Shown one piece after another: positions 44,334 to 47,261 of a DNA stretch of 47,261 nt. Within the stretch, counting starts at the first letter, position 1. Each line of letters begins with the position of its first letter. Origin of the DNA: a virus. Position numbers and translations under genes: made by a program. The stretch lies in IMG/VR virus record IMGVR_UViG_3300012210_000003; one strand, written 5' to 3'. The notes beneath the pieces are model-generated. The model had not been told where the DNA came from. It saw only the letters and a list, made by a program, of their open reading frames with translations, and ran no database searches.

Positions 44334-45059
44334 ATGACCGTCCGCATCCCCACGCACGAACTGGTCGGGCTGCTCACCGACCTGTCCCTCACCGCCGCAG
44401 ACACCGCCGACAGCGGCGCGACCGCCGGGATCCTGCTGCACACCGTCCGCGGCTACGACGGCGATGCACCCGGCAAGACGGACCTGCTCGTCGGCACGTC
44501 CACCAACCGCTTCACGGTCGGGCACAGCCACATGGTGTGCGCTGGCCAGATCGATCCGATGCTGTGGCTCATCGGTGACGTCAAAGCCGTCCTCGCCGTG
44601 CTCAAACCGCTGGGCAAGGACAAGGACCACGCGGTCGAGATCGGTGTCGAGGATGGGAAGATCGCGGTCGCTGAGGACCCGGACCTGTTCGGTGACCGAC
44701 TGAAGGTGACGTTCGCGGCCGGAGATCCGGGCGAGTTTCCGCATGCGGCGATTTGGGCTGTTCTGTCGCAGATTCAGATGTCGCCGAGCGCGACTGTCGG
44801 CGCGGACAGCGAGACCAAAGCGGCGCCGGCCGTGGCGGCGCGCACGGACTTCACGGCTGCCTATCTGAAGCCGATGTTGACGATCGCGGCCCGTCGTGGC
44901 GCGTTGGTGCAGGTGTTTCGGTATCACCAGCATTTGCCGGTGCATGTGCAGATCGGTGATGCGTATCGGGGTGTGGTGTTGCCGTTTGCTTGGCGGGACG
45001 AGGACAGGGCCGCTGGTGTGGCGCCGTCTGGTGACGTGTACCCGCTGGCGGTGCAGTGA
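44334..45059 (+). CDS. hypothetical protein (241 aa); weak resemblance to sliding-clamp-like folds, unverified
   Basis: ATG 44334 follows GAGAGGA. In frame with track ORF 44157..45059. Confidence 0.65.
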   Translation: MTVRIPTHELVGLLTDLSLTAADTADSGATAGILLHTVRGYDGDAPGKTDLLVGTSTNRFTVGHSHMVCAGQIDPMLWLIGDVKAVLAVLKPLGKDKDHAVEIGVEDGKIAVAEDPDLFGDRLKVTFAAGDPGEFPHAAIWAVLSQIQMSPSATVGADSETKAAPAVAARTDFTAAYLKPMLTIAARRGALVQVFRYHQHLPVHVQIGDAYRGVVLPFAWRDEDRAAGVAPSGDVYPLAVQ

Positions 45060-45646
45060 TGCCTTGGCGCGCACCCGCTACCGGCGGCACGAGCGCCCGG
45101 AAACTGACGGCGGAGTCGGTGGCGGAGATCCGGTCCCGCTGGGCGGCTGGCGGTGTCGAGCAGCGGCAGCTCGCCACCGAATACGGAGTGAGTTGCGGCC
45201 TGGTCACTGCGATCGTGCGCGGAGTCATCTGGAAGGAGGCATCCGGTCCGATCATGCCGCCCCGGCATCGGTCGGGTGTGCCGCACATCAAGGCGCGGCT
45301 GCCGGCTGAGATGGGTCCGTGTGTGGCATGCGGTCGCCAGCGGGTCAGGATTCGCGACTGGCGGGAAGATCCGGACGGGTGGCGAGCGCGTGGTTGCGTC
45401 AAGAACAACAGCCACGATCGGTGCAGCTCGTGCGCAGACAAGGCGCGTCGCGGTGACGTGAGCGTCGTGCGGCGGCGCGTGGTGGCGCCTCGGGTGGCTC
45501 GCCGTCCGGAACCGGTTGTGGTGAAGCAGCCGCTGCGCAAGCCGGTTCGCCGCCCGAGGCGGGCGCCGTTGTCGCCTGGCGAGTTGGTGCGGCTGCGGGC
45601 GCTGGTCGGGCTGCCAGCCGTGTTGCCAGAGGAGTTGGCGTCGTGA
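45056..45646 (+). CDS. HTH DNA-binding protein with basic C-terminal region
   Basis: N-terminal KLTAESVAEIRSRWAAGGVEQRQLATEYGVSCGLVTAIVRG, a homeodomain/resolvase-type HTH. Track ORF. Confidence 0.7.
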   Translation: MMPWRAPATGGTSARKLTAESVAEIRSRWAAGGVEQRQLATEYGVSCGLVTAIVRGVIWKEASGPIMPPRHRSGVPHIKARLPAEMGPCVACGRQRVRIRDWREDPDGWRARGCVKNNSHDRCSSCADKARRGDVSVVRRRVVAPRVARRPEPVVVKQPLRKPVRRPRRAPLSPGELVRLRALVGLPAVLPEELAS

Positions 45647-46842
45647 CCGCCCTGGCTGTTGCCCGGCACGACGGGACACCGGGCACCCTGCGGTCAGGCT
45701 CACTGTTCTCCGGCGTGGCTGGCCTGGACCATGCCGCCGCTGAGGTGTTCGGCGCGGAGCCAGCCTGGTTCTGCGACAACGACCCGGCGGCGCAGAAGGT
45801 GCTCATTCACCGCTACCCAGGTACGCCAGTGCTCGGAGACATCACCACGGTCGACTGGGACCAGGTCGAGCCGGTCGACCTCGTCACCGCAGGCTGGCCG
45901 TGTCAGCCGTGGTCGACGGCCGGACGACGAAGGGGCATTGAGGATGAGCGGGCACTCTGGCCGGAGGTGGCCCGTGCCCTTCGCGCACTACGACCCGGAG
46001 TTATTGCACTGGAGAACGTGGCTCGAATCGTTGCCGCTGGGGAACTTGAACGAGTCGCGGATATGTTGGCCGCTCTCCGGTATCGGTTCTGCTGGACTGT
46101 GCTGGGGGCTGACGAGGTCGGCGGATGCCATCGCCGCAATCGGTGTTTCATCGTCGCTGTTGCCGACACCCCGCGCGACGGACGGCACGAAGGGCGGCAC
46201 GAAGGGCGGCCCGAACCAGCGCGGCTCCAGCGGGGACCTGATGCTGCCTTCGGCGGTGGCGAAACTCTTGCCGACTCCGCAGGCACACGACGGCCGGGAC
46301 ACCTCGCCGGTGCTCCCGTCGATGGAGACGGCGCGGCTGCGGGTGTCGCAGGGCAAGTCCAACCTGGAGGACTCGATCGCGCTGCTGCCGACACCGAGAG
46401 CGGCCGACCGGCACGCGACGATGGGAGCACCCGGAGCGGCCCGGCACGTAGCGGCGGGGAACGGGTCACTCGTGGAAACGCTGGGTGTCCACCTTCTGCC
46501 TACTCCGACCGCACGGGATTGGAAGGGCGAGAACCAACGCCGGGACAGGAGCTGCCTGCCGGGGGCACTGCCTGGGGGATCTACACCGCCGCCATCCGAC
46601 GGTGGGAACGCGTCATCGGACGGTCAGCTCCTGTTCCCCGGGTGGCCGGACCCCAAGGTGGACTGAAACTCAACCCGGCGCTTCCCGAGTTCATGCAGGG
46701 CTTCCCAGCCGGCTGGATCACCGACGTGCCCGGCGTGACGGTGAACGACGCGTTGCGGCTGGCGGGGAACTCGGTCAACCCGATTCAGGCTGTCGCGGCG
46801 CTGCGCTGGTGTGCGGCTCAACTCATCGAGCGTGCAGCGTGA
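45643..46842 (+). CDS. dcm: DNA (cytosine-5)-methyltransferase; single open frame, but the central ~390 nt appear to code in the +1 frame
   Basis: In the track frame: FSGVAGLD (motif I), GWPCQPWS (IV), ALENV (VI), HRRNRCFIVA (VIII), then at the C-terminus WGIYTAAIRRWE and LAGNSVNP (X). The segment between is scrambled in this frame. Confidence 0.8.
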   Translation: MTALAVARHDGTPGTLRSGSLFSGVAGLDHAAAEVFGAEPAWFCDNDPAAQKVLIHRYPGTPVLGDITTVDWDQVEPVDLVTAGWPCQPWSTAGRRRGIEDERALWPEVARALRALRPGVIALENVARIVAAGELERVADMLAALRYRFCWTVLGADEVGGCHRRNRCFIVAVADTPRDGRHEGRHEGRPEPARLQRGPDAAFGGGETLADSAGTRRPGHLAGAPVDGDGAAAGVAGQVQPGGLDRAAADTESGRPARDDGSTRSGPARSGGERVTRGNAGCPPSAYSDRTGLEGREPTPGQELPAGGTAWGIYTAAIRRWERVIGRSAPVPRVAGPQGGLKLNPALPEFMQGFPAGWITDVPGVTVNDALRLAGNSVNPIQAVAALRWCAAQLIERAA

Positions 46843-46898
46843 CCGCGGGCATGGCTACGGCGCCCGACGTGGTGTCCGGGCGCCGCAAGGTAGAGAGG

Positions 46899-47078
46899 TC
46901 AGTCCTCGTCCGGACGCTTCGGCAGCTTGGCGCCCGGCTCGCGCACGTACCAAGCCAGCAGCTCGTTGACCACCTTGGCCCGGTCCATGCCGGCGCGGGC
47001 CGCAGCGAGCGCGGCAGCCGCCCAGCGGTCATCCGGGATGCGGACGCTGCGGTGCTGGGTCTTGGGCTGGTCGGGCAC
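46899..47078 (-). CDS. ribbon-helix-helix (CopG/Arc-like) DNA-binding protein (59 aa)
   Basis: VPDQPKTQHRSVRIPDDRWAAAALAAARAGMDRAKVVNELLAWYV... shows the beta-strand plus two-helix RHH pattern. GTG 47078 is the first start after an in-frame TAG. Below track cutoff. Confidence 0.7.
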   Translation of the reverse strand: MPDQPKTQHRSVRIPDDRWAAAALAAARAGMDRAKVVNELLAWYVREPGAKLPKRPDED

Positions 47079-47093: not shown

Positions 47094-47162
47094 GGTGTAC
47101 GTACAGAAAGTCTACCGGAACCCTTGTGGTGTACGTACACCTTGCGATACGGTGTACGTACA
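47094..47162. promoter_or_regulatory. Three copies of GGTGTACGTACA, each containing the perfect 10-bp palindrome TGTACGTACA
   Basis: Palindromes at 47096-47105, 47130-47139 and 47153-47162 (the last equals 15-24). They lie between the divergent RHH gene and the gene starting at 48 (47186). Confidence 0.8.
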
Positions 47163-47261
47163 CCCCGAAGGACGGAGCAGCCGAAATGACCGTCACCGCC
47201 AAACCCCACAACCCCACTACCACCGACCCGTTCGCCCTGATCCCCGCAGCCGACGGCTACG
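47139..47261. repeat. Terminal overlap copy B (identical to 1-123)
   Basis: Same comparison. The offset between copies is 47,138 nt. Confidence 0.95.

Follow-up and report, generated by a model that had tools for sequence, protein, structure and literature searches.

The viral record IMGVR_UViG_3300012210_000003, whose whole analysed stretch of 47,261 nucleotides (nt) is called the window in the following, represents an uncultured actinobacterial phage or prophage and contains on its plus strand a gene for a DNA C5-methyltransferase with a second open reading frame (ORF) nested inside it. The outer frame (frame A; alpha, 45643–46842 in the ORF list) codes for 399 amino acids (aa), which comprise the catalytic core of a C5-methyltransferase, a spacer and a set of C-terminal motifs. 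The inner ORF (beta, 45944–46666) is read on the same strand in the +1 frame (frame B), codes for 240 aa followed by a stop codon and lies wholly within alpha. On balance we consider it likely that the locus encodes a two-polypeptide C5-methyltransferase from two overlapping genes, of the M.EcoHK31I type.

The frame-A protein contains the motifs expected of a C5-methyltransferase. Motifs I (FxGxG), IV (PCQPWS with the catalytic Cys, 45898–45915), VI (ENV, 46012–46020) and VIII (HRRNRCFIVA, 46129–46158, with CFIV at 46144–46155) follow each other in one chain, and motifs IX (EFMQGFPAGW, 46687–46716, offset 789) and X (GNSVNP, 46765–46782) come after the variable region. Motif IV, located by regular expression and translation, was invariant in our alignments. 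A preceding sequence-only reading had assigned the methyltransferase motifs, CFIV and the C-terminal blocks to frame A, and translation confirmed all of these positions. In the Pfam scan, the match to PF00145 was restricted to aa 17–174 of the frame-A protein (E=1.5e-36), TIGR00675 was matched with 102.8 bits at a cutoff of 100.65, and a Foldseek search with the model of the alpha N-terminal domain retrieved M.HhaI (E=1e-13). An AlphaFold2 (AF2) model of the frame-A protein, built with 26 frame-A-type homologs, reached predicted local distance difference test (pLDDT) values above 90 at aa 15–175 and 305–399, the latter including the C-terminal part WGIYTAAIRRWE with motifs IX and X (46573–46842, WGIY from 46573). 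In between lies the spacer AVADTPRDGRHEGRHEGRPEP... (46159–46572), the frame-A reading of the beta modules, which is of low complexity and predicted to be disordered, with pLDDT values of 33–44 and no secondary structure at aa 190–303. A folded target-recognition domain between motifs VIII and IX of the same polypeptide is thus absent from frame A. The assignment of motifs IX and X in alpha is based mainly on the motif pattern, and the block of the single-chain relative P0016 that is homologous to the alpha C-terminus was aligned by HMMER to residues 273–307 of M.HhaI (motifs IX–X) with a sub-significant domain score of -1.3.

Frame B is open from 45659 to 46666, and its candidate start codon at 45944 is found just past motif IV. 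Eight nt upstream of this ATG lies a purine-rich, Shine-Dalgarno-like stretch, GAAGGGG (45929–45935), which alpha reads within the codons CGA AGG GGC (Arg-Arg-Gly). The first 71 aa of beta form a leader (MSGHSGRRWPVPFAHYDPELLHWRTW...CWPLSGIGSAG...SSS, 45944–46156) that is dual-coded with alpha motifs V–VIII, and the DNA of ENV in motif VI reads W-R-T in this leader. Four LLPTP modules follow (46157–46570, starting at 46157, 46265, 46382 and 46493), which presumably constitute the target-recognition part, and beta ends with the tail PGGSTPPPSDGGNASSDGQLLFPGWPDPKVD and a TGA stop codon (46571–46666), the frame-B reading of the conserved WGxY block of alpha. Module 1 (LLPTPRATDGTKGG..PNQRGSSGDLMLPSAV) is nearly invariant throughout the family. 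In the window, a 12-bp tandem repeat (46183–46215; 2.8 copies with 95% matches according to Tandem Repeats Finder) doubles GTKG in this most conserved module (TDGTKGGPNQRGSSGDLMLPSAV) and HEGR in alpha, in frame for both, and relatives have one copy of the repeat unit. The four modules with their G+C-rich third positions and the 12-bp duplication within the frame-B segment had already been noticed in the sequence-only reading, and both observations proved correct.

Several lines of evidence indicate that the middle region functionally codes in frame B, as had been proposed. From 46183 to approximately 46400, the G+C content at the third position of frame B, which is the first position of frame A, was 0.93, compared to 0.52–0.62 at the third position of frame A. 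When both translations of the middle segment were searched against phage records by tblastn, the frame-B segment matched methyltransferase genes in 71 records, whereas the frame-A segment yielded no match. Identity to the close relatives L001 and L003 in the middle region was 0.80–0.85 in frame B versus 0.47–0.57 in frame A, and 33–51 of the nucleotide differences fell on the third position of frame B, in comparison to 12–22 on each of positions 1 and 2. The substitution pattern argues that the modules are under purifying selection in frame B. The sequence of the alpha spacer is only a by-product of frame B, and the simple ORF call of an intact dcm gene is misleading, as the earlier reading had warned.

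This layout is widespread. A composite protein assembled from frames A, B and A matched 1804 database proteins. Unexpectedly, a frame-A-type middle, AADPAGDGRHEGRPEPAG..., was present in the closest homologs among called proteins (P0002, P0003, P0008 and others), and the DNA of the closest homologs in Logan, in JGI contigs and in a 9-Mb Amycolatopsis contig encodes well-conserved LLPTP modules in the +1 frame, which the G+C-rich third positions follow in each of these loci. Further 160 loci were picked from IMG/VR and GTDB genomes by N-terminal methyltransferase patterns alone. Across 165 loci, with motif IV as the reference, [LIVM]PTP modules were nearly always in +1, and motif X was back in frame 0. 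About 90 of the 130 related loci left after removal of redundancy, from several phyla and with G+C contents from 0.31 to 0.74, read the recognition motifs in +1. The layout of the window, with the modules in +1 and motif IX in frame 0, was observed in 24 of the 130; modules and motif IX were both in +1 in 21, only motif IX in 20 and only the modules in 19, and the modules were solely in the alpha frame in about four. Loci with G+C contents of 0.31–0.5 from Firmicutes, Bacteroidota and others also have the layout. Frame 0 resumes ahead of WGxY in Actinobacteria, immediately ahead of motif IX in the group of L010 and only past motif IX in loci of the second layout. Since this return point varies by clade, it fits the end of a subunit better than a programmed shift site.

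Selection keeps both frames open, as tested in 46 non-redundant loci with a G+C content below 0.52, in which the expected openness was derived from the off-frame stop density per codon of flanking genes (0.057 for +1, 0.080 for -1). Frame 0 was free of stop codons between motifs VIII and X (mean of 141 codons) in 45 of the 46 loci, where 0.02 would be expected, and none of the 46 had a +1 stop codon within the 68 codons that separate the ATG site from the end of motif VIII (0.85 open loci expected).

Codon usage in the high-G+C relatives further shows selection on the start codon and the leader of frame B. The beta ATG at 45944 is the +1 reading of GAT-GAG within the alpha sequence E-D-E-R. 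GAT encoded the Asp that follows motif IV in 30 of 43 high-G+C loci, compared to 17% elsewhere in the same genes (p=1.5e-12; as interrelated Streptomyces loci are included, this and the following p-values overstate independence), and where the next codon begins with G, the +1 frame reads ATG in 29 cases and ACG in 3. Gly12, three codons upstream, was encoded by the rare codon GGA in 16 of the 29 ATG-bearing high-G+C loci (55%, compared to 15% elsewhere in the same genes; p=2e-6), which yields AAGGGA or AAAGGA 8–13 nt before the beta ATG. This statistic concerns the relatives only: in the window Gly12 is GGC, and its Shine-Dalgarno-like stretch was read from the sequence alone, but the GAT-derived ATG is kept. 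At alpha Arg117 (in L-R-P), 29 of 35 high-G+C loci (83%) have CGA, a rare codon, compared to a background of 13% xGA codons upstream of the overlap (p=2e-14). The Asp of the beta motif Y/F-D-P results from this codon, and the window reads CTA CGA at this site. In low-G+C loci, the Arg117 codon test was not significant and the Asn codons of ENV gave no support for a selected Thr in beta, which probably reflects a different type of leader.

Proteins corresponding to beta are abundant in the databases. A search with the beta ORF from its internal Met retrieved 1585 proteins at E<=1e-5, most of them called "hypothetical protein", about 200–300 aa long and lacking a Pfam domain. They begin with M-S-x-x-S-G...PFAxYDP..SSWRTSQ...TWPxSG, followed by LLPTP modules, and the leader motifs PFAxYDP, SW(R/K)T and TWPxSG are nearly invariant among 53 beta proteins. 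The 71-aa leader alone, searched against 1.84 billion cluster representatives (50% identity), matched 54 at E<=1e-3, a result that is informative on start positions and not on the size of the family. Most of these 54 align query residues 1–5 to their own residues 1–5, and therefore independent gene calls share the Met of beta; the database proteins P0122 and P0124 start at this same Met. In two loci (L166 and L168), the gene caller had picked the nested ORF and left the methyltransferase ORF uncalled.

In the arrangement that we favour, alpha would provide the catalytic large domain that binds S-adenosylmethionine (motifs I–VIII), a disordered spacer of about 140 residues and, after it, the WGxY block with motifs IX and X. 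Beta, probably initiated at the internal ATG just past motif IV, would contribute the 71-residue leader, the four LLPTP modules as the real variable or target-recognition region and a short by-product tail. By analogy with M.EcoHK31I, both chains may assemble non-covalently into the active enzyme. The data show the layout, its conservation across the family and selection on both frames, including the start codon and leader of beta; translation of beta from 45944, its association with alpha and target reading by the LLPTP modules are our inferences.

M.EcoHK31I from E. coli HK31 is a heterodimeric C5-methyltransferase that recognizes YGGCCR (PMC2836561; PMC3404938). Its beta chain is encoded wholly within the alpha gene in another reading frame, methylation requires both chains, and internal Met codons of the beta frame serve as starts (PMC2836561). 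The alpha chain comprises motifs I–VIII as well as X, plus the target-recognition domain, and the beta chain comprises motif IX (PMC2836561; PMC3404938). Compared by layout and not by sequence, the window shares with it a beta ORF nested in alpha and an alpha chain with motifs I–VIII and X. The exact partition of M.EcoHK31I is reproduced by the relatives of the second layout, with motif IX in +1 and motif X in frame 0. Motif IX in the +1 frame, the feature of the M.EcoHK31I beta chain, was found in at least 41 related loci of this second layout, to which the window does not belong. M.AquI is a natural two-subunit C5-methyltransferase that is split within the variable region (PMC3404938). Motifs IX and X belong to its non-nested beta chain, whereas alpha of the window is uninterrupted and picks up again behind the variable region with both of these motifs. 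A single split like that of M.AquI, with the modules, motif IX and motif X all in +1, occurs in the relatives L008, L038 and L099. In the proteobacterial-type proteins P0267 and P0273, one frame holds a long +1-type N-terminus, the leader, WPTP modules and motifs IX and X, and these proteins appear to be long second subunits like that of M.AquI.

The single-chain enzymes M.HhaI and M.HaeIII (PF00145) show the same order of motifs I, IV, VI, VIII, variable region, IX and X, but have the variable region in the same frame and chain. SPR/phi3T-type methyltransferases of Bacillus phages are also single chains, with tandem short recognition modules in the variable region, each with a demonstrated specificity. 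The tandem arrangement resembles that of the window, in which the specificity of the LLPTP modules is only presumed and the modules are encoded in the second frame. The only family model covering beta is phrog_1008 ("DNA methyltransferase"), whose profile positions 64–208 match beta aa 4–157 including the leader and whose positions 182–319 match the alpha C-terminus; it was generated automatically by clustering called phage proteins, mixes the frames and does not represent a described subunit family. Literature searches retrieved no paper that gives the nested layout for phage methyltransferases or as a general feature. Among structures, PDB entries 3g7u and 3lx6 are prophage C5-methyltransferases from E. 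coli CP-933R and Shigella, both from structural genomics.

Several observations weigh against a two-polypeptide enzyme or the evidence put forward for it. In the window, motif IX resides in alpha and beta consists of the leader and the four LLPTP modules, in contrast to M.EcoHK31I, whose target-recognition domain the literature places in alpha. Both junctions are seamless when compared to single-chain homologs such as P0016, which frameshifting would predict as well. The separation of frames is not absolute, since genes of the Seagreen type have extra LLPTP modules in the alpha frame, five of them in Seagreen itself (L172). AF2 modelled beta alone with a mean pLDDT of 60 and a predicted template modelling (pTM) score of 0.28, and only a leader hairpin (aa 8–25, pLDDT approximately 86) and some helices in modules 2–3 were confident. 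A family-wide scan of fourfold-degenerate sites over the overlap gave identities of about 0.3 for most columns and raised values for a few and was thus largely uninformative, in contrast to the targeted codon tests, which were decisive; the interrelatedness of the Streptomyces loci in the codon tests belongs here too.

Among the alternatives, the one that survives best, although we regard it as unlikely, is that beta is made but is not a subunit of the methyltransferase and acts, for example, as an independent DNA-binding or regulatory protein, with alpha alone being active or inactive. The evidence for translation and selection is silent on the partner and the function of beta, and scans of the frame-B product against Pfam and NCBIfam matched no family. 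However, in single-chain relatives (P0016, P0023, P0041 and P0100) a leader element of the WPxSG type stands behind motif VIII and ahead of the first module, and this element and the LLPTP modules occupy exactly the place of the variable region of a C5-methyltransferase, between motifs VIII and IX; the +1 ORF of the second layout additionally carries motif IX. Without the modules, alpha has only a disordered spacer where a recognition domain would be expected, and M.EcoHK31I is an experimental precedent for an enzyme composed of two such chains.

A double programmed frameshift, +1 at about 46156 in the tail of motif VIII and -1 at about 46570 before WGIY, would instead produce one canonical chain, and recoding had been among the explanations offered in the sequence-only reading. 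We judge it to be very unlikely, although the composite of frames A, B and A aligns over 92–97% with single-frame homologs such as P0016, without gaps at the junctions, and the windows for switching are just 1–5 codons wide. In every locus examined, one and the same DNA at the forward junction supplies both the tail of motif VIII (F-I/L/V-x-A) and S-S-L-LPTP; in the window, three-line translation together with 16 loci assigned the FIVA tail of frame A to the DNA of SSSL in the SSSLLPTP of frame B. At the return junction, CLPGA(L/V) adjoins (D)WGxY. In the aligned DNA of 16–18 loci, no slippery heptamer, stop codon or rare-codon pause was conserved at either junction, and the conservation of the junction DNA was only that imposed by the amino acid sequences. 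Genes with programmed frameshifts of the prfB or dnaX type, in contrast, possess a conserved slippery sequence at the shift site, or a stop or rare codon there combined with a stimulatory element. The runs of five G to which the earlier reading had drawn attention are indeed present at 46561–46565 and 46574–46578, but they are not conserved among relatives, and one of them is part of TGG GGG, which codes for W-G; a role in frame switching is therefore not supported. Nor does frameshifting account for the open frame 0 along the modules and the open +1 frame upstream of them in low-G+C loci: both open stretches would be superfluous if the ribosome only shifted after motif VIII, which argues against simple shifting. 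The clade-dependent return point speaks against it as well, and its product would lack the WPxSG leader element that the true single-chain relatives have kept. The selected ATG, the purine-rich stretch and the selected leader residues, located about 210 nt upstream of the supposed switch, find no explanation by frameshifting and thus favour a separately initiated nested ORF over ribosomal recoding.

Highly improbable, in our view, is that the frame-A protein represents the whole enzyme, with its Gly/Arg/Asp-rich middle as the genuine recognition region and the resemblance of frame B to recognition modules as a relic. The frame-A ORF is intact, and many database proteins share its middle text (AADPAGDGRHEGRPEPAG...). 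The sequence-only reading had named homologs colinear with frame A as an argument against coding in frame B; P0002, P0003 and P0008 are indeed colinear, but only because they have the same dual-frame architecture, which deprives the argument of its force. The middle text is fully determined by conserved codons of frame B, identity in frame A is low with the variable sites at frame-A first positions, and the predicted disorder does not fit a recognition region. A relic, moreover, would lose the G+C-rich third positions of frame B and the openness in low-G+C genomes.

Scarcely credible is a private defect, that is, two compensating 1-nt indels in a decaying gene or two assembly errors, as also considered in the sequence-only reading: the net frame change is zero, G runs are present near the second junction and real single frameshifts are known in the family, but alignment to homologs revealed the same +1 layout in Logan, JGI, IMG/VR and NCBI genomes, in the 9-Mb Amycolatopsis contig and in low-G+C phyla, so that the layout of about 90 of the 130 loci is not private to the window and therefore neither an assembly error nor the result of lineage-specific indels, and frame B is under purifying selection.

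Two groups of genes show variations of their own. The PCQD[LV]S subfamily (L169, L170 and L172) has an insertion after ENV and also contains a nested +1 ORF, which starts just past ENV and has a leader of the form ...IAxWNPARGVWET...SETWPTSGMTRxG. The methylase of Mycobacterium phage Kingsley (L171) is annotated as two ORFs, gp70 and gp71, since within motif VIII its frame genuinely differs by 1 nt from that of Seagreen gp68 (L172); this is a phenomenon distinct from the nested ORF.

Searches for near and distant DNA matches among cultured phages yielded nothing but distantly related methyltransferase genes, and none of these phages was closely related to the window. In a Pseudonocardiaceae metagenome-assembled genome, one contig (L165; NCBI DASPZO010000867.1, assembly GCA_035636235.1), equivalent to window positions 45100–46998, is identical to the window across the gene. 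Its annotation lists a 168-aa frame-B "hypothetical protein" (46160–46666) and a 66-aa piece of frame A (46642–46842), and the N-terminal catalytic part is left without an annotated gene. Upstream of alpha, its GTG start codon overlaps the TGA stop codon of a 196-aa ORF (45056–45646) in GTGA at 45643–45646, an arrangement typical of translational coupling; this ORF had no Pfam match. The palindromic 12-mer GTGTACGTACAC occurs at 14–25, 47095–47106, 47129–47140 and 47152–47163, one copy with one mismatch, where 0.06 occurrences would be expected. Three of the copies lie between a small minus-strand ORF (46899–47078) and a plus-strand ORF starting at 47186, and this cluster looks like a set of operators. 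The copy at the start of the window suggests that the ends of the window join, as in a circular or permuted element.

If the locus indeed encodes a two-polypeptide enzyme, many phage methyltransferases would be misannotated, be it as a single "intact" protein whose variable region is spurious, as a pseudogene or in fragments next to a "hypothetical protein". Since beta holds the recognition modules, methylation targets could not be predicted from the sequence of alpha, and alpha cloned alone would probably be inactive. M.EcoHK31I, the single experimental example, would be extended to a broad family, and the gene pair would constitute a clear and comparatively well-supported case of a long same-strand overlap with selection visible on both frames, which could serve as a test case for the detection of overlapping genes. 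There is about an even chance that, in a very large clade of phage and prophage C5-methyltransferases, the nested +1 beta gene represents the architecture that is both ancestral and dominant. This clade may span Actinobacteria, Firmicutes, Bacteroidota and Proteobacteria, and the arrangement would then be more than an oddity of a single E. coli enzyme. In that case, more than 200 nt encoding alpha motifs V–VIII and the beta leader would be truly dual-coded, and the "variable region" of most database Dcm-like proteins in the clade would be a meaningless spacer, while the real recognition subunit would be an unannotated family without a Pfam model. The LLPTP modules could then be shuffled or duplicated with the catalytic chain left untouched, for which the 12-bp repeat and the differing module sets of close relatives may be examples.

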